A stretch of 64,000 bases of DNA from Candidatus Desulfarcum epimagneticum (GCA_900659855.1 CAACVI010000001.1:113179-177178); one strand, 5' to 3'. Shown: positions 1,035 to 50,506, numbered from the stretch's first letter. Numbers and translations are program-made. The notes: generated by a model from the letters alone, not told the origin.

Positions 1035-2615
1035 ATGCATGTGACGTTTTACGGGGCGGCCCGGGAAGTCACAGGATCCATGCACCTGTTCTCCGCGGGC
1101 GGGGACCGGATTCTGTTTGACTGCGGCATTTTCCAGGGCCGCCGGAAAGAATGCGAGCATAAAAACAGGACGCTGCCCTTTGACCCGTCCATTCTCTCGG
1201 CCGTGGTCCTTTCCCACGCCCACATCGATCATTCGGGGCGGATCCCCATGCTGACCAAGGGGGGAAAATTCAGCGGGCGGGTGGTCTGCACCCGTCCCAC
1301 TGTGGCGGCCTGCGAGTATCTTCTCCCGGACTCCGCCCACATTCAGGAATCGGACGCCGCCTACCTGAATTACAAAACCCTGCGAAAATCCCTTTCCGGT
1401 ATGAAACAGGCTTCCGGAAACGGAAAATCCAAAAAAAGCGAGGAAAAAAAGATTCGGGAAATGCTCAAAAAAGGCTCCCGCAGGCCCGACATGGCGCTGG
1501 TGTCCCGGCTGATGAAAGAGCGCCGCATCGAGGTGGTCCGCCCCATCTACACCACCGACGAGGCCCTGGGCGCCCTTGAGCATTTTGACGGCTATCCCTA
1601 CCAGGTCCCCGTGAAAATAGGGGACCACATGACCTGCCGGTTTTATGACGCCGGGCATATACTCGGCTCCGCCTTCAGCGTGGTCCGGGCCTCGGAAAAC
1701 GGCAAAGCGCGGACCCTTTTATACACCGGGGACATCGGCCGTTTCGACAAGCCCATCATCAACGACCCCACCCTGGTTTTTGAAGACGAGGACCGGGACA
1801 TTGATCTGATGATCATGGAAAGCACCTACGGCGACCGCCTTCACGGCCCGGTGGCGGACTTAAAGCCCCGGCTCGGTGAAATCATCAGCCGTGTCGCGGA
1901 AAGGGGGGGGACCATTCTCATCCCCTCCTTCGCCTACGGGCGGACCCAGGAACTGCTTTATGTCCTGCATGAGCTTTACAATGAGGGCGGCGCCCCCCGA
2001 CTCCCGGTGTATGTGGACAGCCCCCTGGCCACCCACATCACCCGGGTCTTCGGCGAGCATCCCGAAAGCTATGACCGGGAAACCCATGAGACTTTTCTGG
2101 AAAAGGGCCTGAACCCGTTTTTTTTCAGCCAGGTCAAGTTTGTCGAATCCGTGGAGGAATCCATGGCGCTGATGCGTGACGAAACGCCTCACATTGTGCT
2201 GTCCGCTTCGGGAATGTGCGAGGCCGGGCGCATTCTTCACCATCTGCGTTACAAAATTCACAACCCGAAAAACGCCATCCTGATCGTGGGCTACATGGCC
2301 CAAAACACCTTTGGCCGAAAAATTCAGGAGCTGGGGGCCCAGCGCATGGAATCCGGGAAAAAGGGCCCGGCGCCCCTGGTGAAATTTTTCAACAAAACGT
2401 ATCCGCTCAAGGCCGATGTGTTTTCCATCGGGGGGTTCAGCGCCCACGCCGACAAAAACGAGATGCTGCGGTTTTTAAAAGAATCCAATCTCAACGTCAA
2501 AAAAATCGCCGTGGTGCACGGCGAAAACGATCAGTCCCTGTCCTTCGCCGAGACCCTCAGGAACGAGGGGTTCGAGGCCCAGGCCCCCATGCCGGGGGAA
2601 ACCATTGAGTTTTGA
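1035..2615 (+). CDS. MBL-fold metallo-hydrolase, beta-CASP (RNA-metabolising) family
   Basis: 526-aa ORF with the HxHxDH motif (SHAHIDHSG), an N-terminal FYGAAREVTGS and a C-terminal beta-CASP-like region (GGFSAHAD). Confidence 0.8.
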   Translation: MHVTFYGAAREVTGSMHLFSAGGDRILFDCGIFQGRRKECEHKNRTLPFDPSILSAVVLSHAHIDHSGRIPMLTKGGKFSGRVVCTRPTVAACEYLLPDSAHIQESDAAYLNYKTLRKSLSGMKQASGNGKSKKSEEKKIREMLKKGSRRPDMALVSRLMKERRIEVVRPIYTTDEALGALEHFDGYPYQVPVKIGDHMTCRFYDAGHILGSAFSVVRASENGKARTLLYTGDIGRFDKPIINDPTLVFEDEDRDIDLMIMESTYGDRLHGPVADLKPRLGEIISRVAERGGTILIPSFAYGRTQELLYVLHELYNEGGAPRLPVYVDSPLATHITRVFGEHPESYDRETHETFLEKGLNPFFFSQVKFVESVEESMALMRDETPHIVLSASGMCEAGRILHHLRYKIHNPKNAILIVGYMAQNTFGRKIQELGAQRMESGKKGPAPLVKFFNKTYPLKADVFSIGGFSAHADKNEMLRFLKESNLNVKKIAVVHGENDQSLSFAETLRNEGFEAQAPMPGETIEF

Positions 2616-4490: not shown

Positions 4491-5488
4491 AAATCGGTTC
4501 CGTGACGCTTGAAAATCCCCTGGTTCTGGCCCCCCTGGCCGGCATCACCCATCTTGCCTTTCGCTTCCTGGCAAAGGAAGAGGGCTGCGCCCTGGTGTGC
4601 TCGGAAATGATCAGCGCCAACGGCCTGGTCCGGGGCTCGGCCAAAACCCGTAAGATGCTGGAAAGCGATCCTAAGGAAAGGCCCCTTTCCGTCCAGATTT
4701 TCGGCTCCGAGCCGCCGGTCATGGCCGAGGCGGCCCGGATGGTGGAGGAGGCGGGCGCCGATATTCTGGACATCAACTTCGGGTGCTCGGTGAGAAAAAT
4801 CCTGAAAAGCGGCTCAGGCTCGGCCCTGATGAAATCCCCCCGAAACGCCGAGACGCTGATCAAAGCCGTTCGAAAGGCCATTCAAATCCCTTTGACCATC
4901 AAAATTCGGAGCGGGTGGGACCCCTCGGGGGAGGACGCCCTGAAAATCGCCGAGATCGCCGAAGACCAGGGCGTGGACGCCATCGCGGTTCATCCCAGGA
5001 CCGCCCGGCAGGGCTTTTCCGGAACCGCCGACTGGTCCGTGATCGCCGCCGTCAAGAGGGCCGTGTCCATTCCGGTGACGGGAAACGGCGACGTGACCCG
5101 CCCCGGGGATGTCTTGAGGATGATGGCCGAAACCGGGTGCGACGCCGTGATGATCGGAAGGGCGGCCATCGGAAATCCCTGGATTTTTTCCCAGGCCGCC
5201 GCCCTTTTAAAGGGGGACGAAACAAAGGAGCCGTCTTTGTCCGAGCGGTTCCGCGTCATGAAACGGTTCCTGGAGGGCTGCGTGGCGCTTTTCGGGGAAA
5301 AAAACGCCTGCCGCATGATGCGAAGCCGTCTTCCCTGGTTTGTCAAGGGGCTTCCCCACAGCTCCCGGTTCAGAGAATCGGTCAAACAGGTGTCCAGCCA
5401 AAAAGAGGCCGGGGAGCGGATAGAGTCCTACCGGGGTTTTTTAGAAGAGCGCCGCCCCGGCCCTCAGCCGCCTTCCGACGCCGGATAG
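4487..5488 (+). CDS. dus: tRNA-dihydrouridine synthase (Dus family)
   Basis: 333-aa ORF with a typical Dus N-terminus (LENPLVLAPLAGIT), DINFGC and AVHPRTARQ motifs. Confidence 0.85.
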   Translation: MKIGSVTLENPLVLAPLAGITHLAFRFLAKEEGCALVCSEMISANGLVRGSAKTRKMLESDPKERPLSVQIFGSEPPVMAEAARMVEEAGADILDINFGCSVRKILKSGSGSALMKSPRNAETLIKAVRKAIQIPLTIKIRSGWDPSGEDALKIAEIAEDQGVDAIAVHPRTARQGFSGTADWSVIAAVKRAVSIPVTGNGDVTRPGDVLRMMAETGCDAVMIGRAAIGNPWIFSQAAALLKGDETKEPSLSERFRVMKRFLEGCVALFGEKNACRMMRSRLPWFVKGLPHSSRFRESVKQVSSQKEAGERIESYRGFLEERRPGPQPPSDAG

Positions 5489-5906
5489 GCCGCCGACACC
5501 CGGGCGTCGATCCCCCCCCGGGCGGTGAATTCCCCCGTCACTTCCATTCTTTTGGGTTTGATCCTTTCACACAAATCGTCCAGTATCCGGTTGACCACAT
5601 GCTCATAAAAAATCCCCACGTTCCGGTACTGAAGCAGGTAATACTTCAGGGATTTCAACTCGATGATTTTTTGATCCGGCGTGTACCGCACGGAAATGGT
5701 CGCGTAATCCGGAAGACCCGTCATGGGGCAGACCGATGTGAACTCGGGCTGGCGAATCACGATATCGATGTCTCTTTTCCCGCTGTAGGCGTAGTCGATG
5801 GGATCGAGAATCCCGGCCTTCACAGAGCCGGGATCTTCAATGGCATAGGGCGGTTTGGGGGCGGCTTTTTTTGCGGTCATGGCGAAACGCTCCTCACATG
5901 TCTTCA
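5450..5906. repeat. left copy of a 457-bp direct repeat (whole queF, its 5' leader and the last 13 codons of dus)
   Basis: By-eye alignment to 16436-16892 shows the same length, no indels and about a dozen substitutions. Confidence 0.9.
5464..5880 (-). CDS. queF: NADPH-dependent 7-cyano-7-deazaguanine (preQ0) reductase, unimodular type, copy 1
   Basis: 138-aa ORF with catalytic-Cys context VCPMTGLPD and the QueF motif ELKSLKYYL. Converges on dus and overlaps its 3' end by 25 nt. Confidence 0.9.
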   Translation of the reverse strand: MTAKKAAPKPPYAIEDPGSVKAGILDPIDYAYSGKRDIDIVIRQPEFTSVCPMTGLPDYATISVRYTPDQKIIELKSLKYYLLQYRNVGIFYEHVVNRILDDLCERIKPKRMEVTGEFTARGGIDARVSAAYPASEGG

Positions 5907-5921
5907 GTATACGCGCAATCG

Positions 5922-6338
5922 CTATTTCTTCGCGCCGGCCACCTGAAACTGATCCTCAAACATCACCTGGGCCGCAAACCATTGGTTTTTTGATTTGTAA
6001 AAATAAAACTCCCACAAAACAGGATGACGCTCATGCCGGGCGAGTTCGACAATTCTTACCAAAGACGGGGAAAGCGCCTCTGTGTGTATATTTTCAGTTC
6101 CGAGAAATGAACCGTAAAGCGCCTGGACTGAGCCTGCGCGCTGTTTCATAAGGGTGAGCTGCTCGGCCCTTTGGCCCGACAGCGGATTTTTGGAATAAAG
6201 TTTGTCAATCGCCACCGCTTGTTTTCCGGCCGAATAGTCTTTGAAAAACGCGGCCACCTGTTCCTTGGGTTCGCCATCATACGCATGGGCCCAGGAGGCC
6301 ATTAACAATATGATCAGTATCGTCGCCAACCTTGCCAT
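5922..6338 (-). CDS. secreted hypothetical protein
   Basis: 138-aa ORF with an N-terminal signal-like segment (LATILIILLMASWAHA). Same strand as the RHS gene and downstream of it. Confidence 0.5.
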   Translation of the reverse strand: MARLATILIILLMASWAHAYDGEPKEQVAAFFKDYSAGKQAVAIDKLYSKNPLSGQRAEQLTLMKQRAGSVQALYGSFLGTENIHTEALSPSLVRIVELARHERHPVLWEFYFYKSKNQWFAAQVMFEDQFQVAGAKK

Positions 6339-6452: not shown

Positions 6453-6947
6453 TCAGTCCATGGCCTCAAGGTCTTTTTTGATGATTCCGGCTAAAAATTT
6501 CCAGGTGATGGGTTTCATGTCGTTGAGGGCCTTTAAAAACTCCAGGTTTCCCTGGTCCGGGAAGACGATCTTTTTCCCGTCCAGATTAAAGGTCAAATAA
6601 AGATTCCTAATCATGGAATTGATATTTTGAGTTTTTGCAATCATATCTTCTTTTCTGCACATATAAAAAACAATCTCTTTTTTTTCAGGATCGATTTCCG
6701 CCTTATACGCAAAGTTTCGGAAGCCTATCACTATCATCAAATAAATAGACAAAAAAATCGGAAAAAGAGCCATTAATGATACTCGAAATGCCGGGCCAAA
6801 ACCGTCATCGTGAGCATACCAAAGCCCGATGCCAATGAAAGACAGCCCTAAAATTTGGCCCACATATCTGATTACATAAAAACCGAATTTCCCGTTGTTC
6901 ACCACAATGCGTTTCTCTTCGTTCTCAACGTATGATTGATCCATCAA
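6453..6947 (-). CDS. small membrane protein; candidate immunity protein for the RHS C-terminal domain
   Basis: 164-aa ORF with two clear hydrophobic spans (GQILGLSFIGIGLWY; LMALFPIFLSIYLMIVIGF). A/T-rich. It is the first gene downstream of the RHS stop, after a gap of about 97 bp. Confidence 0.5.
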   Translation of the reverse strand: MMDQSYVENEEKRIVVNNGKFGFYVIRYVGQILGLSFIGIGLWYAHDDGFGPAFRVSLMALFPIFLSIYLMIVIGFRNFAYKAEIDPEKKEIVFYMCRKEDMIAKTQNINSMIRNLYLTFNLDGKKIVFPDQGNLEFLKALNDMKPITWKFLAGIIKKDLEAMD

Positions 6948-7044
6948 TCTTATCCCTCCTTTCCGCTTTCAGAGCTACATTTCCCGCCCTTCCCGCACAC
7001 GTCCGGGCACGGGCGGGAAAGGCCTCGCAATCATGCCGCTACCC

Positions 7045-10000
7045 TCAAGGGCCTATATCGCCCATATCGCTATCATCACTCTTCTGGTTGCCGGGAGAAG
7101 TCTTGCCATCCCCTCCTCCTTTGCCCCCGGCCTGGCTTTGCGGGGAGGCGCTTTGGGCCCCGGCCGGGCCGCTTTTTTCCTCGCGCCCCATGCCATGACG
7201 GGCTTTGGATTTTTTCGACCTGCCAAATAACTCCCCTAATTTCCCAAGGACGCTGGCCTTAAAACTTGTGGTCGCGCCCAAAGCTTTTTCAGCGGTTCCG
7301 GCGAACTTGGTTGCTGGACCCGCCATTTTTGTCACCATGGCTCCAGGAACGGCGGCTATCGGTCCAGTCACCGCGCCACTCTTCGCTCCCTCCCAGGCCC
7401 CTTTTACCGCGCCTTTCGTCACGCTTTCGCCTTTTTCCTGAGCTTCAAGTATGCCAGCGGCGGCGCCTCCGGCCGCCCCGGAAGCAGCCCCTGTAGCCGC
7501 TGAATCAATCGTCGCTGCCAGCGTAGCCCGGGCGGCTGTGGCCGCGCCTAAACTGCTTGTGCCAGGACTGACAAACCCAAGCGCAACTCCTACAACCCCG
7601 CCGACAATGCCGCCCACAACAGCGGCCTTCATATTGCCATCGGTGGTCATCATCCCGGTAGTGAAACCCGTGACCGCGCCGACAAATCCGCCGAAGATCG
7701 CCCCGGCGACACCCACATGCCCATCCGGATCCGTGTATATCAAAGGATTGTTCAGGCAGTAGGAATACCGGTTCAATGACTGGGGATTATACACGTCCGG
7801 CACGATGGTGTCCGGGGTGACAAATCGCCCGATGACCGGATCATACAACCTTGCGTCATAATTGTAAAGCCCGGTGGAGGTGTCCAGCTCCTGATCGGTG
7901 AATTTGTAGTCCGACACAACCGAGCCGGTATGGGCCCTCATTGAGCCAAAAGGCATATACTCCGATGTCTCGACCGCTTGAGCCCTGTTAGCAGGGGGCA
8001 TGCCAAGAAACCTCCCGTCTGTGGTAACCGACGAACTGCCAAGATGGTCTTTATGAAAATAATGGACGGTTCCTCCGGTTGTTGTGCTTGGTACGATTTT
8101 GGCGATGCGCAGGTTGCCCGCGAAAATATATTTCACCGGGCTTCCATCGTTAATCTCGTAATTTTCATTGATGTACAAGACCGTGCTTCCCCCGGTGACG
8201 GCTTTTTTCACACGCTTTCCCTCGCCGTCGTATTCAAAGGTGGTGTCTGTCGTCGCGTCATTGACACACCTGGCGATTCCGGCGGGCATGTTTTCCTCAT
8301 TATAAGATATTGTTCTTCGGGCTACTTGAGCGGGATTGGTAAAATCCCATCCGAAATTCATATTTCCATTTTGATCATATTGAAAAGTATATGTCGTTCC
8401 GCCGTTCAAAGTGATCGATCCCACAGCATGGCTGTGGGCGGCGTCATATGAATAAGCAAACTGATTCGTCCCGACCGTTTTTCTCAATATATTTCCTATG
8501 TCATTGTAAGTCAGGCTGACGCCAGAGTCATCACCGCCGTTATTGGTTTTGGTTTCTTGAACAAGCCTGTGGAGATCATCATAAGAATACGTGTATGTGA
8601 CGCCGGCCAAATGATCTTGTATAGAAGATATGTCTCCAGCAGGAGTGTAGGTGTACGACTTGTCCTGCCTGAGTTCATAGTGAGGGTCTTCTAGGCGGAC
8701 ACTCGTGGCTCCCCTGCCTCTTGATGTGGTGATGCGTGTCAGTCTCGTGGACAATGGATTGTACTCATATTTGGTGAATATGCCGTTGTTATAAGAAATG
8801 AGGCCCGGTTTTCCGTCCGGCGTATATTGGTAAAAACGTGCATGCGTGACGCTGTCTGAAGACCCAGTCCCCCATCGCCCAACCACAGCGCTGATAAGAC
8901 CGGAACCATAAACATGGCAGTACACAACCGTATAACCACCAGGATACGTCATTGACGTGAGTTTCCCGGAGAAATCGTAGACATATGAGGTGACGTAGGG
9001 GTTGCTCCGGATGTTTTTTGTCACTTTCGTCTTTCTTCCCATTTGATCGTATTCATACGTGTGTTTAACATCTATTAGTATTTTTCCATTCGCCCTCAGA
9101 TTTGCCTTCAATATACCTGCTAATCTTCCTTTTCCATTTGGAGACTGATCATATAGATAAACATAAAAACCGCTGTTTCCAACGGATTTCCCATCAACCC
9201 TGTTTAAGGAGTCGTATGTGAATTTTATGATCTGTCCTTTGGCATCCGTCTGCTTTTTAAGGTTTCCGTTCAAATCATATTCGTAGCTCCAGGTTCCCAA
9301 ATCCGGATCAATCATTTGAGTTTTTCTGCCAAGCGTGTCATAATGATTTTCAGTCTCGTTTCCATCATGATCGTAGATATTCAGCAAATCCCCTGCGGCA
9401 TTATACGAATATCCTGTGTTCGTCCGGTCAGCGCCCATATGCTCTATCACAAGTATAATTCTGCCCAGATAATCCGTCTGTTCGGATCTTTTTCTGTCAT
9501 CGGGATCGGTCACAGTCGTTTTTAATCCACTGTATGCGTAGGAAGAAGCGATGACGGCGCCCGGGGCGGCGTCAGGAGCCGGATCCGGCTCCTCCACCCT
9601 GGAAAGCCTTCCACGGTGATCGTAGACGTTTCGAACATATGGATACTCTGAAGGAAGCGACGCCTCGGCGCCGGTGGCCGCTGTAAAATTCGTGCTGAAT
9701 GCCGGACCTTCAGTCAGATGATTTCTTCCCATATTATCATAGTGGATCTTTGTTAAAATGGTTTTAGCCACAGCCGGTCGAATAATCGGGTCGTTTTCCC
9801 CGAAGGTCACAATCCGTATCACCCTCCCCAGACCGTCAAAATATTCGTATTGATCCACTGTTTCGACGGTCGCTGTTGGGCTCCCGGTTTCCTTTATCTG
9901 CGTAAGCAAATAGGCGGGCGAAAAAACCCCTACTATTTCCTGATATTCAGTGTATGCGATTGTCATTTGTCCGTCGTCGGGATAATCGATCCGCACAGGA

Positions 10001-13000
10001 CGCCCGAAAACATCATAAGTATAACTTGTCACGTTTTCGTTTTCATCAGTGAAGGTGGAAATTTTGCCAAACTTGTAGTCGTAAGTGTATTCTTTTGCCA
10101 GTCCGGTCACCGGGTATGCTATTTTGACGGGGTATATATGGGTTTGGGTGTCATAGCTGATTGTTGTCACATGCCCTTTGGCGTCGGTCACGCTTGTGCG
10201 GTTTCCGTAAATGTCATATCCAAAACGGATTGTCGGATTGACTCCCGAATCATTCACATACTCAATAGATTCCAGATTGCCGGTCCCAGGGGAATAGCCA
10301 TAATTCTTTTCTCTTGCCTTTCCGCTAAACTCCCCCTCAATGGCTTCTCCGGTTTTCCGCCAGGTCCACCCGTCTGCCCTGAAGCCATAGTTCTGGTATG
10401 CAAATGTCGTGGTGACGTCTTCTCCGTTTGTTCCCGATGTGATCAGCTGTGTGACCTGGCCGTGATCGCCGTCATACGCATAATCCTCCTGATCAAAAAC
10501 CGTCAGATCATCATACTGTTCAACGCGTTTCCGATTAAGCCTTGCAAACCTCCATGGATCGCCCGTTGAACTTTCGTGCGCCTCCCAGGTGTAATCTGAT
10601 CTTTCCATCAAAGTCCCCCTGGGGTCTTTCATCTTAAGCGTTTCTGTTTTCCCGTGCAGAAATTCACCCTGATGAAAATCAGCCTCTTCGGTTGTGCCGT
10701 CCGGGTGGGTCTTTGTCACTGTCCGGAAACCCCGGAATCCCCTGTTCCTGAAATTGAACAGTCCCCCGGAGTAGCTGAAGCCTGTCGTGGATGAATTCGG
10801 CAAATCATCAGGATCCGACATTCTGTCTCTTACCACCAGTTGAGACGCCACCGGGAATGAGAATGGAAGAAACGTGTTGGGGTATGCGGTGGAATGTCTG
10901 TAAGTGATGTCCGTTGTCCCGCCGTAGGCGCTGGTGATTTGCGTGATCAGATCAGTGGGAGTTCCTCCGGCGTAATAAAACTGGAAATTGGAAGCAGGTA
11001 TTTTACGGGTGGCCCATAAGTCCCATCCTTCAGTCCCATACCCGAAAAGAGCGTCGGCTCTGCCGTCGCCATTGATGTCCCCCCATGATGTGACATCTCT
11101 GTATACGTTTCTGCCACTGCTATTAGGAATGGTTGTGTTACGGACTGCCGCAAAAGTCCCGTCACCATTTGACAACTGATATTGGTAATTACCGTTCCCT
11201 CCACTTGGCGAGGGCCGCCGTATTAAATCAGCCATGCCGTCGCCGTTTATATCCGCCAGGTGGATGCCGGTGTCGGAGTCTTTAAATCTTATTCGAGAAC
11301 TGTGGGCGCTGTGCCATCTCCTGTCCCCACTATTAAGATATGGATACAATATCGCGTCACCGTGCATAGGATAATCAGGGGCATAATCCACACGCATGGC
11401 ATCCACCAGGCCATCGCCGTTGATGTCCCCCCATACAGTGGAAGTAATCGTCGGCCAGTGGGATTTATAAGATATCAGGCCCGTATTATACCCGGCGCCA
11501 AAGGTTCCATTACCGTTGGATGGATAACATTGATAATACCTGTTTTGGTTTGTTGGCCCATTGGGGTCTCCCACCACCAAATCAGCGAGACCATCCCCGG
11601 TCAAATCCAGCAATCCCGCTACCTTCGACTTAGGCGTTCTGCCTTGAACTCTTTCTAATATTCTTCCTCCAGCATGTTCCAAACTCACCCTTCCGCCAAC
11701 CGGCGTTGTGTTTAGATATACTTCTGCGTGGAGAAATACCTCGAAGCCACTTACATTTATAGATGTCACAACAGCGTCCTGTTTTCCGTCGCCATTGATG
11801 TCCCCCCACCATGACTTGGCCACGATTTCGATATCTCGCCTAAATCCCCCGAAATCATATGCTGTGAAAGATCGAGGCAAAGGAATGTCCAAGCTGACCG
11901 GGCTATTAAAAGTTCCTCTTCGATTGGACAAGCTATACTTTAAGACAGCCCCGCTTCCCGGATGAGCTTCCGCTGTCACCAGATCGGAAACGCCGTCTCC
12001 GTTTATATCCACCAAGGCGCTGTCAAGTAGCACCTGATTGCCATGGGTAATAGTCTGACCCCTGGAATGACTCGCCCCGCCCCCGTTCTGCCACACAAAA
12101 CTTTCAAGCGGCCGGCTTGTCGTGCCATCCGACCCATACATCGTCACGTCGGTTAAACGGGAACGCCCGGTATGAGCCCCCTGGTTATAAGTCAGCTGGT
12201 ATCTCCGAACCAGCTGCCCCCCGGACAGCCTGCTGTTTGCCGCTGATGTCGCATTTGAATAGACCTCAATGCGCGCCAGTCTTTTGGCCGTTTTCACAGA
12301 AAATTTTGTTTTGTAGCTGAGCGGGGCGTCGCTCCTGGTCTCATAAACAAAGTTGATATAATTACTCTCAAATGCTCCGACGGGGCCGCCGGTATAAACA
12401 ATCTGGTCAGGATACAACTGCCCCTGATCCTTGGTATAGTAAATTCTCATGTAATTCCTGTTGGTGTCCTCTATCTTCTCCAGACCCCATTTGAACACAT
12501 TGTCTCCGCTCTCCTGCCTTCCTACGGATCTCGCTCCGTAATAAAACTTTGTCCCGTCTCTTGCCGTCACTTCCCATCCGCCCGTCGCGGAGTCGAAATA
12601 ATACTTTGAGAATTCCTCCTCAATTTTGGCGCCGTAATAATCGGAACCCCAGTCAGACCTTGACGCCAGATCATGCAATCCCCCGTTTTTCATCACCACA
12701 TAATCGTCGGCGCTGTAGTCCACGCCTTTTTTTGAGCAGCGCTGGATGAACCCGATGTTCAAAAACCACCCCATTCCGACGATTCCATTTTTAACCGCGC
12801 TACTGTATTTAAGGGAGAGACCGGGCTCAATGCCCGCCCTGCCGGGCGGCGCGATGATGGGAACGCTGTATTTGACCGCGCCGGTGGCATTGCTGATCTC
12901 AACGTTGCTGATATCGATCTCCGGCTTAACATCAATATCCACAGGGGGCACGGGTGGAGTAGGCTTCGCACCCTCGGGAACCGATTCCCCGACGGCGCCG

Positions 13001-13254
13001 TTAAAGTCATCGGCCTGATCATCAAAACCTTTGTCATAATCGTCTTCCCCGAAATCCTGAAGCGGTTCGTCCCCCATATCTTCGCTTATGAAGTCCGGGT
13101 TAAAGCCGTCTTCTTCCCCCCGCCATTCAACGGCGGTTTCGAAATCCGGCGAATCCGCATATTCTTCGGCGTTTCCCACGGCGGGAATCAGAACTGTGTG
13201 AAGAGTGAAAACCAGGGCCAGCAGACAATGGGCGATTTTTTTTTGAACCCACAT
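7045..13254 (-). CDS. fused TcB/TcC-type RHS (YD-repeat) polymorphic toxin with signal peptide
   Basis: 2069-aa ORF preceded by a strong RBS (AAGGAGGGGA). It has a signal-like N-terminus and an SpvB-type block (KYSVPIIAPPGRAGIEPGLSLKYSS..GMGW). Six FG-GAP/VCBS-like DINGDG motifs and many YD repeats follow. The RHS core ends in LYDPVIGRFVTPD...NRYSYCLNNPLIYTDPDGH. Confidence 0.9.
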   Translation of the reverse strand: MWVQKKIAHCLLALVFTLHTVLIPAVGNAEEYADSPDFETAVEWRGEEDGFNPDFISEDMGDEPLQDFGEDDYDKGFDDQADDFNGAVGESVPEGAKPTPPVPPVDIDVKPEIDISNVEISNATGAVKYSVPIIAPPGRAGIEPGLSLKYSSAVKNGIVGMGWFLNIGFIQRCSKKGVDYSADDYVVMKNGGLHDLASRSDWGSDYYGAKIEEEFSKYYFDSATGGWEVTARDGTKFYYGARSVGRQESGDNVFKWGLEKIEDTNRNYMRIYYTKDQGQLYPDQIVYTGGPVGAFESNYINFVYETRSDAPLSYKTKFSVKTAKRLARIEVYSNATSAANSRLSGGQLVRRYQLTYNQGAHTGRSRLTDVTMYGSDGTTSRPLESFVWQNGGGASHSRGQTITHGNQVLLDSALVDINGDGVSDLVTAEAHPGSGAVLKYSLSNRRGTFNSPVSLDIPLPRSFTAYDFGGFRRDIEIVAKSWWGDINGDGKQDAVVTSINVSGFEVFLHAEVYLNTTPVGGRVSLEHAGGRILERVQGRTPKSKVAGLLDLTGDGLADLVVGDPNGPTNQNRYYQCYPSNGNGTFGAGYNTGLISYKSHWPTITSTVWGDINGDGLVDAMRVDYAPDYPMHGDAILYPYLNSGDRRWHSAHSSRIRFKDSDTGIHLADINGDGMADLIRRPSPSGGNGNYQYQLSNGDGTFAAVRNTTIPNSSGRNVYRDVTSWGDINGDGRADALFGYGTEGWDLWATRKIPASNFQFYYAGGTPTDLITQITSAYGGTTDITYRHSTAYPNTFLPFSFPVASQLVVRDRMSDPDDLPNSSTTGFSYSGGLFNFRNRGFRGFRTVTKTHPDGTTEEADFHQGEFLHGKTETLKMKDPRGTLMERSDYTWEAHESSTGDPWRFARLNRKRVEQYDDLTVFDQEDYAYDGDHGQVTQLITSGTNGEDVTTTFAYQNYGFRADGWTWRKTGEAIEGEFSGKAREKNYGYSPGTGNLESIEYVNDSGVNPTIRFGYDIYGNRTSVTDAKGHVTTISYDTQTHIYPVKIAYPVTGLAKEYTYDYKFGKISTFTDENENVTSYTYDVFGRPVRIDYPDDGQMTIAYTEYQEIVGVFSPAYLLTQIKETGSPTATVETVDQYEYFDGLGRVIRIVTFGENDPIIRPAVAKTILTKIHYDNMGRNHLTEGPAFSTNFTAATGAEASLPSEYPYVRNVYDHRGRLSRVEEPDPAPDAAPGAVIASSYAYSGLKTTVTDPDDRKRSEQTDYLGRIILVIEHMGADRTNTGYSYNAAGDLLNIYDHDGNETENHYDTLGRKTQMIDPDLGTWSYEYDLNGNLKKQTDAKGQIIKFTYDSLNRVDGKSVGNSGFYVYLYDQSPNGKGRLAGILKANLRANGKILIDVKHTYEYDQMGRKTKVTKNIRSNPYVTSYVYDFSGKLTSMTYPGGYTVVYCHVYGSGLISAVVGRWGTGSSDSVTHARFYQYTPDGKPGLISYNNGIFTKYEYNPLSTRLTRITTSRGRGATSVRLEDPHYELRQDKSYTYTPAGDISSIQDHLAGVTYTYSYDDLHRLVQETKTNNGGDDSGVSLTYNDIGNILRKTVGTNQFAYSYDAAHSHAVGSITLNGGTTYTFQYDQNGNMNFGWDFTNPAQVARRTISYNEENMPAGIARCVNDATTDTTFEYDGEGKRVKKAVTGGSTVLYINENYEINDGSPVKYIFAGNLRIAKIVPSTTTGGTVHYFHKDHLGSSSVTTDGRFLGMPPANRAQAVETSEYMPFGSMRAHTGSVVSDYKFTDQELDTSTGLYNYDARLYDPVIGRFVTPDTIVPDVYNPQSLNRYSYCLNNPLIYTDPDGHVGVAGAIFGGFVGAVTGFTTGMMTTDGNMKAAVVGGIVGGVVGVALGFVSPGTSSLGAATAARATLAATIDSAATGAASGAAGGAAAGILEAQEKGESVTKGAVKGAWEGAKSGAVTGPIAAVPGAMVTKMAGPATKFAGTAEKALGATTSFKASVLGKLGELFGRSKKSKARHGMGREEKSGPAGAQSASPQSQAGGKGGGDGKTSPGNQKSDDSDMGDIGP
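7048..7716 (-). other. RHS C-terminal variable (payload) domain, 223 aa, Gly/Ala-rich and glycine-zipper-like
   Basis: This is the sequence after the DPDGH boundary. It begins VGVAGAIFGGFVGAVTGFTTG...VVGGIVGGVVGVALGF (GxxxG-type hydrophobic repeats). Ala/Gly/Lys-rich low complexity follows, ending in an acidic tail. Confidence 0.6.
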
Positions 13255-13726: not shown

Positions 13727-14580
13727 GCGCTGGAAAACTTGCCTGTTATTCGTCTTTAAAAAAAAATCCACCAAAAAAAACAAACGGCTCAACATTTTCC
13801 ACACAAAAAAAATTCATATTTTTCGGGTTGTGTCAAGGATTTCGAGGAAATATTTAAAATTTTGCTTATATTTTTATTCAATTATGAATCATTAAATTAT
13901 AACTTTTATGCGCAAAATCACGTTCAAAAAAGGGATTTGACGGCGCCAGAGAAGGGGCTTAAATAAAAAGCGAGAAGTTTTAATAGTATTTCTTGATATA
14001 TCAATGGATTAGAAGGAAAAACAGGGGCCTTTCCCGGGTTATATTTTTAATAAAAAATGACCGAAAAATTATCATTTTTGGCTTCAAAATTCGGCCCGAA
14101 CAGGAGAGGCTCGACCCGATTTTAAGATTTTTTGGGCTTCCATGCAGCGAATCCGGCGTTGCGACCGGCTTATGACCGGCGCCGAGTCCTCGGACCTTGT
14201 CGGCCCTGATGCCCTCGAACATACACATACTGTGACGACAAAAGCGCTCAAGCTTCTTGATGGGAAGAAGGTTGAAGGATATTTGCGTATTGAGAGAGTT
14301 TATGGTCAAACAGGGGGTTGTAAACAGCAAAGAATTTAAAAAGTGAACGGAACTCTCGGTAGAAGGCCCATTTTTCGGGGCTGGTCCATCGCCTATCCGC
14401 TCGGATTGATCTGGTGGCGCTCTTGGAGCTTGCCGCGCTTTTTTTTCGACGCAATGTTTTTCTCTCAAGGTTTTTTCAAAAACAGTCCGCTTTTTCCCTT
14501 GCGCGTCTATCCTGGAATGGGTATATTAAAAAAGAATGCGCAAAAGACTTTCAGGAATTTATAGATGCGAGGAACGGCCC

Positions 14581-15036
14581 ATGAGCGATGAAAACAGCCA
14601 GGCGCAAGCGCCTCAAATGGACATGCAGATGCTGATCGCCGGGATTATTCCCAACGTCAAGCATTTCGACAGCCGTTTTGATCTGCTCCAGGTTCAGATA
14701 GACGGCCTGAAAAATGGTCAGAACGAATTGAAGGACAGGATCGGACGCCTGGAGACAGGGGTGGACCGGCGTTTTGAGCAGGTGGACAAACGCTTTGCGC
14801 AGGTGGACAAACGTTTTGAACAGGTGGACAAACGCTTCGAGCAGGTGGATCGGCGTTTCGAGCAGGTGGACAAACGTCTGGAGCAAATCGCGGTTTCAAT
14901 TGATCGCCTGGGGGACAAGCTGGATCGAAGAGATGAGGGCCAGCGGAATTTTACGATCAAAATGTTTTCCATCGCCGTCACCATATCCGTTCTGGGAGTG
15001 TCCGGGGCGTTCTTAAAGGTTTTGGGCATCATTTGA
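14581..15036 (+). CDS. tail-anchored coiled-coil protein with tandem (R/K)RFEQVD heptads
   Basis: ATG at 14581 has GAGGA 7 nt upstream (the track ORF starts at 14536). Contains six 21-bp/7-aa repeats and one C-terminal hydrophobic helix (MFSIAVTISVLGVSGAFLKVLGII). Confidence 0.6.
   Translation: MSDENSQAQAPQMDMQMLIAGIIPNVKHFDSRFDLLQVQIDGLKNGQNELKDRIGRLETGVDRRFEQVDKRFAQVDKRFEQVDKRFEQVDRRFEQVDKRLEQIAVSIDRLGDKLDRRDEGQRNFTIKMFSIAVTISVLGVSGAFLKVLGII
14761..14886 (+). repeat. 6 x 21-bp tandem repeat (GTGGACAAACGYTTYGAGCAG-like) encoding the heptads
   Basis: Units read directly at 14761, 14782, 14803, 14824, 14845 and 14866. Confidence 0.9.
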
Positions 15037-15097
15037 TGGCGTCGTAAAAAAAATGCGTCGCAGCGCTTATTTTTAATCAAGGCATACTACTGTCATG

Positions 15098-15721
15098 TCA
15101 AGCGTTAAAAGTCGGATAAAGCCGACGCAGTTTTATTCGCGCGTCTTCAGATGTGAATTGCCAATTTACTTTGGCGTTTTTATTGTTTCTGGCTTTCTGC
15201 CATGCATGCGCTTCCTTTTTCACGTTTTGAATATCGTCAATTCTTCTTTTTAAACACTGCCCAATGAGAACATTTAATTCTATTTCAGCCATATTTAGCC
15301 AACTGCCGTGTTTTGGAGTATACACAAAATCGAATCTGTCCCATAATTTTTTTGCCTTGTCCGGTCGAAAAGTTTCATACAAAGCGCCAGGCGTATGTGT
15401 GTTCAGATTGTCCATGACCAGCGTTATCTTTTGAGCTTTTTCATAAGCCGAGGCAATTTCTTTTATAAAAAATGCCCAGTCTTTTTTTGTCTTTCTCTCA
15501 GTGATTTTTACCATTCGGTTTCCCGCAAGAGGCTCACATGCCATGAAAATATTACACACCCCGAAACGCTTGTATTCATAATCATACCTCTCCGGTTTGC
15601 CGGGCGACGCTGAAATAGGAATCTTTGTTTCTCCAATCAATTGTTTTGGCGATTCATCCATGCATATCACTGGAAACTTTGGATCAAATGGACGTTTGTA
15701 AACATCCAAAACTTTTTCCAT
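15098..15721 (-). CDS. IS630-family transposase, DDE catalytic part (orfB)
   Basis: 207-aa ORF with IS630/Tc1-like stretches (ICMDESPKQL, ITLVMDNLNTH, HGSWLNMAEIE). Confidence 0.75.
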   Translation of the reverse strand: MEKVLDVYKRPFDPKFPVICMDESPKQLIGETKIPISASPGKPERYDYEYKRFGVCNIFMACEPLAGNRMVKITERKTKKDWAFFIKEIASAYEKAQKITLVMDNLNTHTPGALYETFRPDKAKKLWDRFDFVYTPKHGSWLNMAEIELNVLIGQCLKRRIDDIQNVKKEAHAWQKARNNKNAKVNWQFTSEDARIKLRRLYPTFNA

Positions 15722-15756
15722 ATGCGCGACAAAGCTGCAATTTTGTTTCGGCGGAA

Positions 15757-16230
15757 TTACCCATCCTTTACGCAGCCATGGTTTGATTTCGTTTTTTTTA
15801 AAATGCCACGAATAGTTTCATGTGATACACTTTCAATGTAATCAAGCTCGACAACCTTTTCTGCCAGCAAACGCAAACTCCATCTGGAAAAACCCTCTGG
15901 GGCCTCGCTGCAACTCAGCGCAACCAAGCGTGCCTCGAAATCCCCGTCGGTTTTCTTTTTATATATACGACTTCCTTTTTTCCCGTTCAGTGTAATATCA
16001 ATACCATCTTCAACAAAACGTTTTTTCACGCGGTCAATTTTTTTCATACTGACGTTCAGAACTTTTGAAATCTCTTTGTTTTTAGAGCGATTTTTCTGAA
16101 ATTCACCATCATCACATCCAAGCAAAATTAATGCGTTAAGAATTTTTTGAGACTTATGTTTTCCCTTTGATGTGAGCGCCATAAGATTGTTTCGTTCAGC
16201 TTCTGTCAACGTTACTATATATTTTTTCAT
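15757..16230 (-). CDS. IS630-family transposase, N-terminal HTH part (orfA)
   Basis: 157-aa ORF ending just after an A8 run. A -1 shift in that run reads on as KKNEIKPWLRKGWVIPPKQNCSFVAHMEKV.. into orfB. This is either programmed frameshifting or a homopolymer error. Confidence 0.75.
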   Translation of the reverse strand: MKKYIVTLTEAERNNLMALTSKGKHKSQKILNALILLGCDDGEFQKNRSKNKEISKVLNVSMKKIDRVKKRFVEDGIDITLNGKKGSRIYKKKTDGDFEARLVALSCSEAPEGFSRWSLRLLAEKVVELDYIESVSHETIRGILKKTKSNHGCVKDG

Positions 16231-16435
16231 AATACGCCCCCCTTCGGCAATTATGAAAAATATAGCATACTTTATGCGACTTTACAAGCTTGACGTGACA
16301 CTACATGTATTGCCTCAATTAAAAATAACCACTACGCCTTGTATATCGAATTTTTAACTTAGCCATCCCAAACTTTTTTACGAGTTTATCATCATTTGAC
16401 TGATCCCTGGCCCCGCCCGTTTGATCTCTGAAAGA

Positions 16436-16892
16436 CGCCGCCCCGGCCCTCAGCCGCCGTCCGACGCCGGGTAGGCCGCCGACACCCGGGCGCCGATCCC
16501 CCCCCGGGCGGTGAATTCCCCCGTCACTTCCATTCTTTTGGGTTTGATCCTTTCACACAGATCGTCCAGTATCCGGTTGACCACATGCTCATAAAAAATC
16601 CCCACGTTCCGGTACTGAAGCAGGTAATACTTCAGGGATTTCAACTCGATGATCTTCTGATCCGGCGTGTACCGAACGGAAATGGTCGCGTAATCCGGAA
16701 GACCCGTCATGGGGCACACCGATGTGAACTCGGGCTGGCGAATCACGATGTCGATGTCTCTTTTCCCGCTGTAGGCGTAGTCGATGGGATCGAGAATCCC
16801 GGCCTTCACAGAGCCGGGATCTTCAATGGCATAGGGCGGTTTGGGGGCGGCTTTTTTTTCAGTCATGGCGAAACGCTCCTCACATGTCTTCA
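16436..16892. repeat. right copy of the 457-bp direct repeat
   Basis: Aligns to 5450-5906 (see the left copy). Confidence 0.9.
16450..16866 (-). CDS. queF: preQ0 reductase, copy 2
   Basis: Start taken at MTEKKAAPK (cat at 16864-16866), matching copy 1. The two proteins differ at 3 of 138 residues (A3E, D->G, E->D). The track ORF extends further upstream to 17040. Confidence 0.85.
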   Translation of the reverse strand: MTEKKAAPKPPYAIEDPGSVKAGILDPIDYAYSGKRDIDIVIRQPEFTSVCPMTGLPDYATISVRYTPDQKIIELKSLKYYLLQYRNVGIFYEHVVNRILDDLCERIKPKRMEVTGEFTARGGIGARVSAAYPASDGG

Positions 16893-17094
16893 ATGACGCG
16901 TTCAAATTCGGACTTCCTGGATTCGGCATATCAAATTTTCCCCGGCCCGGCCAGGGGTTTTTCGAAAAGTGTGGGGAATGTTCGCATGGCGGGGCGCTTT
17001 TTTGTTTTTGAAAAAAACTTGATTTAATATTTATTTTCACATAAACATTTCTTAAAATTAATTTTTAATCATCCTTTTTAAGGATTTCTATCAA

Positions 17095-31104: not shown

Positions 31105-32313
31105 TTAGTTTAAAACCGACGCCATCCTGAAAACCGGCAGATACAAAGAGACGATAAGCCCGCCCACCGTGATTCCCAGAAATACCATCATAACAGGTTC
31201 GATAAAAGAGGCGACGCGCTCCGCGGCCATGTCCGCCTCGTCGTGATAAAATTCCGCGATTTTTTCAAAAACGGCGTCCAGCTCTCCTGTGGACTCCCCG
31301 ACCCGGATCATCCGGCTGACCATGTCCGGAAAGAGGGGACTGTCGCCCAGGGCCCCGGCCAGGGACCGGCCTTCGGCCACTTCGGCCCGGGCCGTCTCAC
31401 AGGCGGCCTGGATCGCCCGGTTCCCGATGGTTCCGGCCACAGCGCCCATGGCCTCCAGGATGGCCACCCCGCTTTTGAGCATGGCGCCCATGGCGCCGGA
31501 AAAGTGGGCCATGGCCGTTTTTTCCGACAAAGGGCCGAAAACCGGGATTTTGAGCTTCATTTCGTCCGCGAAGAGCCGTCCCTTCGGAGTCCGGAAAAAC
31601 CGGCGCAGCCCCAGCCCCAGGACAAGACCGCCCCCCAGGATATGCCACAGGCCGCTTTTTACATAATCGCTCAGGGCCAGGACCACTTGAGTGGCCAGGG
31701 GGATCTGCCCGCCCATGTCCTCGAACATCTTTCTGAACATCGGGATGACAAAAACAAGGATGATCCCGGACGCCGCCAGGGAAACCAGGAGGGTGGCCAG
31801 GGGGTAAATCATGGCGGCCCCGACCTTCTTGCGCAGCTTTTCCCTCTTTTCCAGATGCCGCGCCAGTTTCATGAGCATCTCCCCGAGGACCCCTCCCCGC
31901 TCTCCGGCCGCCGCCATGTTGGAAAACATGGAGTCAAAACAGGCGGGATGCCCGGCCAGGGCGCCGGCCAGGGTTTCTCCCCTTTCCACCTGGTCCCGGA
32001 CGCTTTCCAGAACATATCTGAATTCCCGGTTTTTTTCCTTTTGGCAAAGAAGATCAAAACATTTGACGATGGGCATTCCGGCGTCCGCCATGGCGGAGAG
32101 CTGCCGGGCGAAGACAATGATGGAGGACTTGGGAGGCGCCGGGGCCGAAAAGGACATTTTTTTCCAAAAGCCCGACGGCTTCTTTTTGATCCGGGCGGGC
32201 GAGATCCCCATCCGGGCCAGCCTCATGCGGACGGCCTGGGCGCCGGGGGCCTCCATTTCCCCTTTTTTAAACTCCCGGCCCGCGTTTTCGCCTTCCCATT
32301 GAAAGGTTGCCAT
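31105..32313 (-). CDS. pilC: type II secretion system F-family / type IV pilus platform protein (PilC-like)
   Basis: Start taken at MATFQWEG (track ORF starts at 32382). It has duplicated GspF domains and the characteristic C-terminus (GLIVSLYLPVF). Confidence 0.75.
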   Translation of the reverse strand: MATFQWEGENAGREFKKGEMEAPGAQAVRMRLARMGISPARIKKKPSGFWKKMSFSAPAPPKSSIIVFARQLSAMADAGMPIVKCFDLLCQKEKNREFRYVLESVRDQVERGETLAGALAGHPACFDSMFSNMAAAGERGGVLGEMLMKLARHLEKREKLRKKVGAAMIYPLATLLVSLAASGIILVFVIPMFRKMFEDMGGQIPLATQVVLALSDYVKSGLWHILGGGLVLGLGLRRFFRTPKGRLFADEMKLKIPVFGPLSEKTAMAHFSGAMGAMLKSGVAILEAMGAVAGTIGNRAIQAACETARAEVAEGRSLAGALGDSPLFPDMVSRMIRVGESTGELDAVFEKIAEFYHDEADMAAERVASFIEPVMMVFLGITVGGLIVSLYLPVFRMASVLN

Positions 32314-32384
32314 GACATCCGTTTGTGTTTCAATTAAAAAAATTAATAATTTTACCAGTCTTTGAGACAAATCGCAAGCCAAAA

Positions 32385-48835: not shown

Positions 48836-48859
48836 CGCCTTTCCTTTCGGACGCTTTTT

Positions 48860-49348
48860 TTAAAGCCCCCGCTTTGTTTTCAACACGCGCCTTTTTTGGG
48901 GATCGCGTGTCATTTCCATGACCACCCGGTCGTTGTGGATGGCCGCCACCCGCCAGCGCCCCATGGAGGAGCCGACCTTAAGCGCGCGGCCCCGGCCCGA
49001 GGCGTCCTCCACCATGGCCACCCTTTCCTGTCTTGAAGGCCCGGCCGGGATCAAAATTCCCGTGAGCCTGAAGGGATTCGGGCGCCTGCGGGCCGCCTGG
49101 TTTTTGTGGGAAACGGGTCGGGGCTTTCGGGTTTCGGTTTTCAAAGGCCCGTTTTTTTTAAGCGGAAGGCGCGCCGGGTTTTCGGACCCGCTCTTTTCCG
49201 GGCCAGGGGACAAAACCTCCAGGGGCGGGGCAAAGGGGTCCGGGGCGCGGCCGGGCGGAAACGGAGCCGGGTCGGGGGTCTGGCCCGCGGCCGCGCTGGA
49301 AACCAGAAGCGCCCAGACGGCGTATGGAATGAGTCCCCGGGCTTTCAT
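48860..49348 (-). CDS. pilP: pilus assembly protein PilP-like
   Basis: 162-aa signal-peptide protein, called from its position between pilO and pilQ. Its start overlaps the pilO stop (ATGA). Confidence 0.55.
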   Translation of the reverse strand: MKARGLIPYAVWALLVSSAAAGQTPDPAPFPPGRAPDPFAPPLEVLSPGPEKSGSENPARLPLKKNGPLKTETRKPRPVSHKNQAARRRPNPFRLTGILIPAGPSRQERVAMVEDASGRGRALKVGSSMGRWRVAAIHNDRVVMEMTRDPQKRRVLKTKRGL

Positions 49349-49959: not shown

Positions 49960-49964
49960 ACGGC

Positions 49965-50501
49965 CTATTTCCTTTCGGTCCCGAGCGCGGGGCAGGCCAG
50001 CTCGAACAGCGTCTGGTCTTTCCCGTCCGGGCCCTTTTGTTTTTTTAATATTTTGAGGCGGACGTCTTTGAAAAAATCCGTTTTTTTGAGCCGCTGGATG
50101 AAAAGCGCCGCGTCGGCGCCGTCCATGGATTTTCCCCGGATGACGGCCGTTTTCCCATCGGACTCCAAATCGGTCAGCCACACGCGCCCCTGGGGAACGG
50201 CCCCGGCCAGATCGCCCAGGAGTCGGACGGGCCATGACCGGTCCCCGGCGATCTCTGAAAGCGCCCGCTCCTTTTTTTTAAAAGCGTCCATCTCGGCTTT
50301 GATGGCAAAAAGGCGTTGGGCCTTTTTTCCATGCCGGGCGGAAAGCCCCTTGATCTCCTCCACCCGGGCCTCCAGGGAGGCGTTGTGAAGGGCCAGGGCC
50401 ATGCACAGGACGGCGGTCAGAAGCGCGAAGACAAAGGCCTGGTTTCTGACTTTTCTTATTTTCATTTTCCGCCGCCGGCCCATGAGATTGATGGCGATCA
50501 T
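49965..50501 (-). CDS. pilN: type IV pilus assembly protein PilN
   Basis: Start taken at MIAINLMGRRR (typical PilN N-terminus), followed by a TM helix. Confidence 0.65.
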   Translation of the reverse strand: MIAINLMGRRRKMKIRKVRNQAFVFALLTAVLCMALALHNASLEARVEEIKGLSARHGKKAQRLFAIKAEMDAFKKKERALSEIAGDRSWPVRLLGDLAGAVPQGRVWLTDLESDGKTAVIRGKSMDGADAALFIQRLKKTDFFKDVRLKILKKQKGPDGKDQTLFELACPALGTERK

Positions 50502-50506
50502 GTTTT

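Follow-up and report, generated by a model that had tools for sequence, protein, structure and literature searches.

What does an exported RHS toxin do when the domain at its C-terminus resembles no enzyme? The question is raised by a gene in the 64-kb stretch of DNA analysed here (below, the window), which comes from Candidatus Desulfarcum epimagneticum, a magnetotactic bacterium and obligate ectosymbiont on a euglenid (euglenozoan) protist (PMC13416559). The gene encodes an RHS protein of 2069 residues, and a protein of 164 residues is encoded next to it. Both are identical to hypothetical proteins of this organism in GenBank, where the RHS protein is listed as a 'conserved membrane hypothetical protein' (P0002, 100% identical). 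We propose, on the basis of the sequence and of its relatives, that the RHS protein may be a stand-alone, Sec-exported toxin with a membrane-depolarising payload, and that the small neighbour may be a membrane protein conferring immunity to it. The interpretation appears plausible and is partly supported by comparative evidence; we give it a probability of roughly 0.55.

Domain organisation of the RHS protein

The two genes and the regions of the RHS protein are as follows.

7045-13254, minus strand: RHS gene, 2069 codons, uninterrupted, ATG start; fused TcB/TcC-type polymorphic toxin
6453-6947, minus strand: immunity candidate (EPICR_10118), 164 amino acids (aa) from a TTG start, or 163 aa from the ATG at 6944 (GenBank start)
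13168-13254, minus strand: Sec-type signal peptide, residues 1-29; MWVQKK, a 20-residue hydrophobic stretch and GNA|EE, judged from the sequence and a Kyte-Doolittle (KD) plot only
12925-13167, minus strand: acidic linker, probably disordered, residues 30-110; 27 D/E against 4 K/R
12421-12888, minus strand: SpvB/TcB N-terminal domain, residues 123-278; Pfam PF03534, E 3e-13
11035-12030, minus strand: FG-GAP (integrin-like) β-propeller, residues ~409-740; Pfam FG-GAP/FG-GAP_3 (PF13517/PF01839), E 1e-18, with D-x-N/T-G-D-G blades
10672-11097, minus strand: TcdB_toxin_midN, residues 720-861; Pfam PF12256, E 1e-20
7960-10557, minus strand: RHS/YD-repeat shell, residues ~900-1765; Pfam RHS_repeat, E 7e-32 in 5 stretches; TIGR01643, E 3e-22; 12 YDxxG motifs
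7717-7959, minus strand: Rhs-associated core (aspartyl autoprotease plug), residues 1766-1846; NCBIfam TIGR03696, 75.1 bits against a cutoff of 32.5
7567-7716, minus strand: payload part 1, residues 1847-1896; two glycine-zipper hydrophobic helices (AGAIFGGFVGAVTGFTTG and AAVVGGIVGGVVGVALGF), then GFVSP
7207-7566, minus strand: payload part 2, residues 1897-2016; basic, Ala/Gly/Lys-rich, ~120 residues, predicted helical, weakly amphipathic, isoelectric point (pI) 9.9
7048-7206, minus strand: payload part 3, residues 2017-2069; low-complexity tail of 53 residues, predicted disordered, with the acidic end SDDSDMGDIGP

An AAGGAGG Shine-Dalgarno sequence lies 7 nt before the ATG of the RHS gene, and the open reading frame (ORF) of the immunity candidate, which starts 100 nt downstream of the RHS gene, has an AAGGAGG of its own. 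The first-pass annotation of this DNA had described a single polypeptide that combines an SpvB/TcB-type N-terminus, a six-bladed propeller, YD repeats and a core ending in PLIYTDPDGH, and the Pfam and NCBIfam matches and the positions of the motifs confirm this description. The Sec-type signal that it had assigned is consistent with the sequence and the KD plot, and the N-terminal hydrophobic segments are retained in most full-length relatives. The six propeller blades are marked by five exact copies of DINGDG (residues 416, 485, 610, 668 and 726) and by DLTGDG near residue 550. Among the structures in the PDB, residues 123-197 match residues 33-111 of YenB. TcdB_toxin_midC is not among the Pfam matches of the protein at E <= 0.1. 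Taken together, the SpvB domain, the propeller and the YD repeats are predicted to form a closed shell.

The Rhs core and its predicted cleavage

The core ends in PLIYTDPDGH1846. Three elements within it, R1802, D1815 and D1842-P-x-G1845, do not vary in either of two family alignments (46 and 35 relatives), and by sequence R1802, D1815 and D1842 correspond to the arginine and the two aspartates of the Tc/RHS aspartyl autoprotease. In Tse5 the cleavage residues are D1141 and D1164, and the cut was shown experimentally to fall between L1168 and I1169, four residues past the second aspartate (PMC10684867); the same set of one arginine and two aspartates is also found in SGS1 and the Tc toxins (PMC9935623). 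The two aspartates are 27 residues apart here, against 23 in Tse5. Because the core residues match the autoprotease set of Tse5, SGS1 and the Tc toxins, the predicted cut lies between H1846 and V1847, which is the same as the domain boundary placed after DPDGH1846 in the first-pass annotation. By analogy with Tse5 and mosquito SGS1, the core would cut after H1846 and the fragment would be kept shielded inside the shell, which would thus be a chaperone for a hydrophobic cargo.

The C-terminal domain

The C-terminal domain (CTD) comprises residues 1847-2069, that is, 223 residues of 20.9 kDa with a pI of 9.6, of which 21% are Gly and 19% Ala. It contains no Cys, and its sole Trp lies in GAWEGA. 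The N-terminal part consists of the two hydrophobic helices, placed by AlphaFold2 (AF2) at CTD residues 4-23 and 29-48 and with KD maxima of 1.65 and 2.29, the GxxxG glycines lying within AGAIFGGFVGAVTG and VVGGIVGGVVGVALG. Glycine zippers were counted as (G/A/S)xxxGxxxG or GxxxGxxx(G/S/T) in hydrophobic helices, following the definition in PMC12744356. There are 8 overlapping matches in CTD residues 1-70 and 20 across the whole domain. The earlier description of a GxxxG-rich start, an Ala/Gly/Lys-rich tract and an acidic tail is thus borne out.

No enzymatic domain can be recognised in the payload by sequence, profile or fold search. The domain had been noted at the outset for lacking any nuclease- or deaminase-like motif, and our searches of Pfam, NCBIfam, PADLOC, the PDB and 1.84 billion representative proteins, together with Foldseek, matched it to no enzyme. 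The best Pfam match is Gly-zipper_Omp (E 0.013, 15.9 bits, below the cutoff of 25), and the domain stays below the gathering threshold for the Pfam glycine-zipper families PF13488, PF13436, PF13441 and PF05433. NCBIfam and PADLOC gave no match of any kind, and a sequence search of the PDB gave nothing significant. An exhaustive phmmer search of the 1.84 billion representatives returned only the RHS protein itself and one spurious match, an SH3b-repeat protein that was dismissed as a low-complexity artefact; a word-seeded search of 5.8 billion proteins returned nothing. The profile, PDB and AF2/Foldseek searches for an enzymatic toxin fold in residues 1847-2069, which had been recommended as a check, were likewise without a match: the single-sequence AF2 model is all-helical, and Foldseek found nothing in the PDB at E < 1. 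This fold search carries little weight because the model is of low confidence, with a pLDDT score (predicted local distance difference test) of 54.

The CTD sequence is essentially unique. Its only colinear relative is the 213-residue tail of a metagenomic RHS protein, P0008, with 35% identity in a MAFFT alignment. The two tails have anchors in common that are neither Gly nor Ala, namely GFVSP after helix 2, G-WE-A, GAV-G, and GDIG near the end. The P0008 tail is also without a globular domain; its contig stops 177 nt past the gene. A metagenome scan with the alignment of these two sequences gave 600 pattern matches, of which 0 were confirmed.

The neighbouring gene

The next gene had been described as encoding a protein with two transmembrane (TM) segments. 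Hydropathy and the structural model both agree with this, placing two predicted TM helices at residues ~18-46 and 52-77 with a short loop between them. A C-terminal domain of ~85 residues follows, predicted to be cytoplasmic, and the charge distribution suggests an N-in/C-in topology. The profile and structure searches recommended for this protein were also run. It has no homologue among 5.8 billion proteins, a tblastn search against 87 fetched related loci was negative, and its AF2 model has a pLDDT of 50, with Foldseek matches that are meaningless.

Relatives and the recurrent zipper-first tail

The full-length RHS protein has more than 1000 relatives, which are 27-43% identical to it in local matches over 83-91% of its length, that is, over all but the tail; the closest has 43% identity by alignment. 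They share the architecture of SpvB, FG-GAP, TcdB_midN and RHS, and their sequences diverge after DPxG. A profile scan of species-representative genomes identified 80 related loci, in Nitrospirota, Desulfobacterota, Planctomycetota, Bacteroidota, Gammaproteobacteria, Omnitrophota, Myxococcota, Chloroflexota and a Methanosarcinales metagenome-assembled genome. The last of these (L039, CAYRXW010000001.1) holds an SpvB-RHS relative on a 332-kb contig binned as an archaeon, on which the RHS ORF that has a complete core is either split or of reduced length (1015 aa).

The tails of the relatives were delimited by locating the end of the Rhs core with a hidden Markov model. A hydrophobic glycine zipper opens the tail, right after DPxG(H), in 30 of 94 well-delimited tails from the protein database and in 17 of 74 from the genome loci, or ~28% overall. 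These tails have a helix-turn-helix zipper, often with a (S/T)DWD or GGDFW turn, and a later element GG(D/N)IGxGALxGA is common to them; the CTD aligns to this element as well as to their zipper modules. The CTD, P0008 and P0042 are among the few tails in which zipper or hydrophobic motifs continue nearly to the end. A Pfam search of ten zipper-type tails of relatives identified no toxin domain. The zipper is not peculiar to the RHS protein described here, nor is the architecture of the protein unusual.

The zipper tails differ from the others in their neighbours. In the 62 genome loci with a downstream ORF, the first such ORF has a TM-like segment in 10 of 14 cases where the tail starts with a zipper, against 14 of 48 for other tails (odds ratio 6.1, Fisher p = 0.011). 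When six hand-examined loci are added, p falls to 0.0007; these include three more zipper-type relatives, whose downstream proteins contain between one and three hydrophobic (TM-like) stretches. The recurrent zipper-first tail in a TcA-less family, linked to membrane-protein neighbours, is the most interesting by-product of the analysis.

The gene directly upstream of one zipper-type relative, P0069, encodes more than 2250 aa and matches nothing in Pfam (L006, 1-5870, plus strand). On the downstream side of P0069 are genes for two proteins, one of 173 aa, in which three segments are hydrophobic (TM-like), and one of 932 aa, which has a faint fn3 match.

Comparison with known toxins

The architecture is already known, because it equals the 'TcdB/TcaC' export class of Zhang et al. 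(2012), which consists of a signal peptide, SpvB, an integrin-like propeller, RHS repeats and a C-terminal toxin, and includes delta-proteobacteria (PMC3482391, Table 1). The defining architecture matches exactly, with the signal peptide here judged from the sequence; the class itself was defined by bioinformatics alone. The RHS protein thus belongs to a catalogued RHS class, and the type of payload has both an experimental precedent (Tse5/Tsi5) and a structural one (SGS1).

Tse5 (RhsP1, PA2684) of P. aeruginosa has a 149-residue C-terminal fragment that inserts in membranes, forms cation-preferring pores and depolarises cells; its immunity protein, Tsi5, is a 2-TM protein of the inner membrane, and the Tse5 shell is said to chaperone an integral-membrane toxin (PMC9637101, PMC10684867). 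The system described here resembles it in having an RHS shell, a DPxG aspartyl autoprotease motif, a hydrophobic, helical, non-enzymatic tail and an adjacent 2-TM gene, although this would be a likeness in kind. The N-terminus of Tse5 is PAAR-like, and the H1 type VI secretion system (T6SS) fires the protein with VgrG4, whereas the RHS protein here has a Sec signal, SpvB, the propeller and TcdB_midN, with no T6SS gene nearby. The likeness of the shells is one of RHS-repeat similarity only (E 6e-9), and the payload is 223 residues long here against 149 in Tse5. No Tse5 chain was found when the CTD was searched against all PDB chain sequences at E <= 10, which is a weak test, as the deposited Tse5 entries may not cover the full Tse5-CT.

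The best PDB matches of the RHS protein are the mosquito salivary gland surface proteins SGS4 (9ON3_A, E 3e-16) and SGS1 (8FJP_A, E 7e-15), ahead of the Tc toxins and the T6SS Rhs proteins. A HMMER alignment (residues 1756-2007) runs from the core into the Gly/Ala-rich hydrophobic helices of SGS1/SGS4, which start directly after DPDG(Q). In SGS1's cryo-electron microscopy structure the predicted TM helices, six in number, are 'daisy-chained' and shielded within a Tc-like shell, and are followed by a separate Tox-SGS domain (PMC9935623). A Tc-like RHS shell, a β-propeller, the arginine and two aspartates of the core, and hydrophobic helices directly after DPDG are therefore features in common. 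Unlike the protein described here, SGS1 and SGS4 are eukaryotic, are 3364-3398 aa long, and have extra receptor domains, no classical signal peptide and no immunity gene; their six predicted TM helices are accompanied by a furin-cleaved, Cys-rich Tox-SGS, whereas the CTD has no Cys. When only the tail is considered the similarity to SGS is not significant, whether the search is made with the CTD alone, with the CTD of a relative or with an 11-sequence zipper profile (SGS4 E 2.2). It may be added that the SGS1 paper cites studies reporting gene transfer between mosquito and Wolbachia (PMC9935623).

The BC subunits of Tc toxins (TcdB2-TccC3, YenB-YenC2) also have SpvB, TcdB_midN, a propeller, an RHS cocoon and an autoproteolytic core, and hold their cargo unfolded within the cocoon. 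Classical Tc systems require a TcA pentamer, have no signal peptide, and carry enzymes such as ADP-ribosyltransferases. By contrast, B and C are fused here, there is a Sec signal, no TcdB_toxin_midC match and a cargo that does not look enzymatic, and there is no TcA in the loci inspected.

Membrane-active tails and zippers are known from other polymorphic toxins. Tox-WTIP, the sole pore-former in the 2012 catalogue, is an RHS tail with two TM segments, whose helices 1 and 2 contain RxxR and W-x-[ST]-I-P, respectively (PMC3482391); membership of the CTD in this family was excluded, since neither motif is present in its sequence. Glycine-zipper membrane toxins with membrane-embedded immunity include EsxX, TelE and TspA of type VII secretion systems and the ionophore CdiA-CTs of contact-dependent inhibition (PMC12744356, PMC11630599). 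In Tde1, a T6SS DNase, a GxxxG zipper is needed for translocation into prey and not for enzymatic activity, and the zipper region alone permeabilises membranes (PMC10240207). All of these glycine-zipper toxins, with Tde1 represented by its N-terminus, share with the CTD extended (G/A/S)xxxGxxxG helices as the membrane-active element at the end of a polymorphic toxin. Their carriers (LXG, CdiA, a T6SS adaptor) are however unrelated, and there is no detectable sequence homology. For EsxX, a cytoplasmic immunity pair is required as well; in the system described here, such shielding would come from the RHS shell.

Proposed mechanism and delivery

If the RHS protein is a membrane-depolarising toxin, it could function as follows. 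After Sec export the shell would fold around its own tail and cut at H1846, and would then carry the tail as shielded cargo, as in Tse5 and SGS1. At the target membrane the fragment would be released, and the two zipper helices would insert and oligomerise with the help of the basic Ala/Gly/Lys-rich helices. The inserted payload would be an ion-conducting pore or lesion through which the membrane potential is dissipated. In the inner membrane of the producer, the 2-TM protein would block insertion or assembly of the payload and so provide immunity.

The first-pass annotation had listed no TcA-like component, no VgrG/PAAR and no two-partner secretion gene in the window, and we agree: Pfam scans of every ORF of at least 180 aa in the window identified no TcA, VgrG, PAAR, Hcp or TpsB, and the RHS protein itself has no PAAR or VgrG domain. 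The one qualification is that the window contains PilM/PilO/secretin and PilC/T2SS-F genes. The gene tables of three relatives have no TcA gene either, nor do the six largest upstream neighbours of other relatives have TcA domains; the three tabulated loci have a small downstream ORF and often mobile-element genes. Because no TcA-like partner is found in any of these places, the analysis suggests that the cocoon reaches its target by a TcA-independent route.

The PilM/PilO/secretin (GspD/PilQ-like) genes are at 47489-51469 (minus strand) and the PilC gene, of the family of type II secretion system F proteins (T2SS-F), is separate from them at 31105-32382 (minus strand). These genes, which make up a type IV pilus or T2SS-like apparatus and lie 24-38 kb from the RHS gene, are the sole envelope-spanning machinery that the window encodes; the window is otherwise made up of housekeeping genes.

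Weighing the alternatives

The first-pass annotation had taken the payload to be directed at a membrane. In favour of this are the membrane-protein neighbours of zipper tails and the precedent of Tse5/Tsi5; what has to be set against it is that a zipper is present in ~28% of the relatives and may be an entry module. A number of other observations also weigh against a depolarising toxin. The comparison of neighbours (10/14 against 14/48) used a crude KD threshold and the first downstream ORF only. The role of the immunity candidate rests on position, coupling and topology, because the protein has no homologue, and statements of homology for the CTD are weak, because the models are of low confidence (pLDDT 54 for the CTD and 50 for the immunity candidate) and the composition is biased. 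Pairwise scores of the CTD with four relatives' tails are above those of 25-aa block shuffles (z = 4.7-6.1), an excess that may reflect a common GxxxG periodicity rather than common descent; with composition correction no match of the CTD to relatives' tails is significant, and the likeness of the zippers is therefore treated as a shared pattern and not as proven homology. A Sec-exported protein with strongly hydrophobic C-terminal helices could, moreover, be retained in the inner membrane of the producer. Finally, about half of the zipper-start tails in the set of 94 have a further 130-240 aa without zipper or hydrophobic motifs, which leaves space for a globular domain. Because so many relatives carry this further region, the zipper may be a membrane-entry module rather than the toxin itself, and the region, together with the Tox-SGS that comes after the helices in SGS1, points to an accessory role for the zipper.

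We regard it as possible, but doubtful, that the zipper here is a membrane-entry or translocation module, with the effector being the remaining ~170 residues, acting by a non-pore mechanism, or having been lost to leave a decayed or cargo-less tail. Across the family at large, the helices would bring a variable C-terminal toxin domain through the target membrane. This would account for the zipper-start tails with extra sequence, in which the GG(D/N)IGxGALxGA motif also found in the CTD occurs, and it has parallels in SGS1, where six predicted TM helices precede a separate Tox-SGS (PMC9935623), and in the translocation function of the Tde1 zipper (PMC10240207). However, no domain is detectable past the zipper in the CTD or the P0008 tail, the last 53 residues look disordered, and an effect on the membrane would agree with the excess of membrane-protein neighbours. 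Since the zipper region of Tde1 permeabilises membranes alone (PMC10240207), even a cargo-less entry module would still be membrane-toxic. It is less probable again that the protein is a Tc/SGS/teneurin-like surface or secreted factor directed at eukaryotes (the euglenozoan host, grazers or competitors) and serving attachment, host manipulation or defence. The source organism lives on a protist as an obligate ectosymbiont (PMC13416559), the solved structures nearest to the protein, those of SGS1/SGS4 and the Tc toxins, belong to proteins that face eukaryotes, and the propeller and shell could be binding surfaces; yet a tightly linked gene for a small membrane protein is a hallmark of self-protection from an antibacterial toxin, relatives are widespread in free-living bacteria of sediment and groundwater, and the window has no TcA translocator. 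The explanation that we consider most improbable is that the hydrophobic helices are a stop-transfer anchor and the tail is non-toxic, or that a mobile island carries the locus as an inactive passenger. Sec-dependent export, the strong hydrophobicity of helix 2 (KD 2.29), the foreign GC content of the island with its adjoining IS630 element, and the orphan sequence of the immunity candidate would all fit. Against it, the autoprotease residues are intact, and an anchor that has been severed from the shell could no longer hold it; nothing interrupts the 6.2-kb ORF, and a strong Shine-Dalgarno sequence precedes each of the two genes; and the equivalent hydrophobic tails of SGS1 and Tse5 are shielded in the shell and are not anchors (PMC9935623, PMC10684867).

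If the payload is indeed a pore-former, as we favour, it would be the second case, after Tse5 and unrelated to it in sequence, of an RHS shell that is a chaperone for an integral-membrane toxin. To our knowledge it would also be the first such case in the large Sec-dependent, TcA-less class with fused TcB and TcC, on which we know of no experimental work. Zipper-first tails with membrane-protein neighbours offer a concrete hypothesis for how BC-type cocoons deliver their cargo when they have no TcA, and, for the unexplained transmembrane helices of mosquito SGS1, the relatives supply a bacterial set for comparison. The horizontal acquisition of a contact weapon by a magnetotactic ectosymbiont may also bear on the upkeep of a single-species coat on the protist host. 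The organism is uncultured, and current concepts of RHS toxins are unchanged.

A wider and rather speculative proposal, which we think unlikely to hold, is that the two-helix zipper after the RHS cleavage site is an unrecognised and widespread self-inserting delivery device, present in about a quarter to a third of the Sec-dependent TcB/TcC-fused family and in many phyla. The device would allow these cocoons to function in the absence of TcA. The shell would chaperone a membrane hairpin that either causes the lesion on its own, as in the ectosymbiont described here, or pulls a downstream toxin domain across the target membrane, and the mosquito SGS proteins, in eukaryotes, would have inherited their transmembrane payload from this bacterial module.

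The genomic island and other genes in the window

The RHS locus lies within an island of ~10.5 kb with a guanine-plus-cytosine (GC) content of 47.7%, against 56.7% in the rest of the window; the lowest value in the module is that of the immunity candidate, 39%. Further features of the island are as follows.

5444-5909, no strand assigned: queF direct repeat, left copy (~465 bp, whole gene), island boundary
5922-6338, minus strand: ORF of 138 aa, located within the island and shortly downstream of the immunity candidate; its N-terminus carries a clear signal peptide, and it matches no family
6980-7020, minus strand: GC-rich RNA hairpin between the toxin stop and the start of the immunity candidate, -30.3 kcal/mol, z = -2.8, no U-tract
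16430-16895, no strand assigned: queF direct repeat, right copy, 97% nucleotide and 98% amino acid identity to the left copy

As the hairpin has no U-tract, its role may lie in processing, stability or coupling and not in termination. The 138-aa ORF could encode a second, periplasmic partner of the toxin module, or be unrelated to it. No orphan RHS fragments or additional cassettes of C-terminal toxin and immunity genes are present in the window.

The duplicated queF around the island looks like the result of an insertion that brought or duplicated its target gene; each copy of the repeat takes in ~30 bp upstream and ~20 bp downstream of the gene. Also inside the island, near the RHS locus, is an IS630-family element at 15059-16336 with a GC content of 38-40%. 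It has two consecutive ORFs, a helix-turn-helix at 15757-16230 and DDE_3 at 15098-15721, which are probably one frameshifted transposase, and the ORFs are flanked by 26-nt inverted repeats that are 81% complementary. The GC content, the queF repeats and the IS630 element are consistent with horizontal acquisition, as is seen for relatives that lie beside recombinases.

An ORF of 166 aa at 14536-15036 (plus strand) contains six tandem 21-nt (7-aa) repeats, QVDKRFE, at 14739-14906. Its product is a predicted coiled coil in which a hydrophobic segment at the C-terminus gives a tail-anchored look, and has generic coiled-coil matches only (Pfam, PADLOC).

Elsewhere in the window there are two genes of the β-CASP metallo-β-lactamase RNase type, at 1035-2615 (plus strand) and 46080-47453 (minus strand), and a Fic/DOC-family protein at 61295-62038 (plus strand; E 4e-25), which is a possible toxin-antitoxin or AMPylation gene and is unrelated to the RHS locus.

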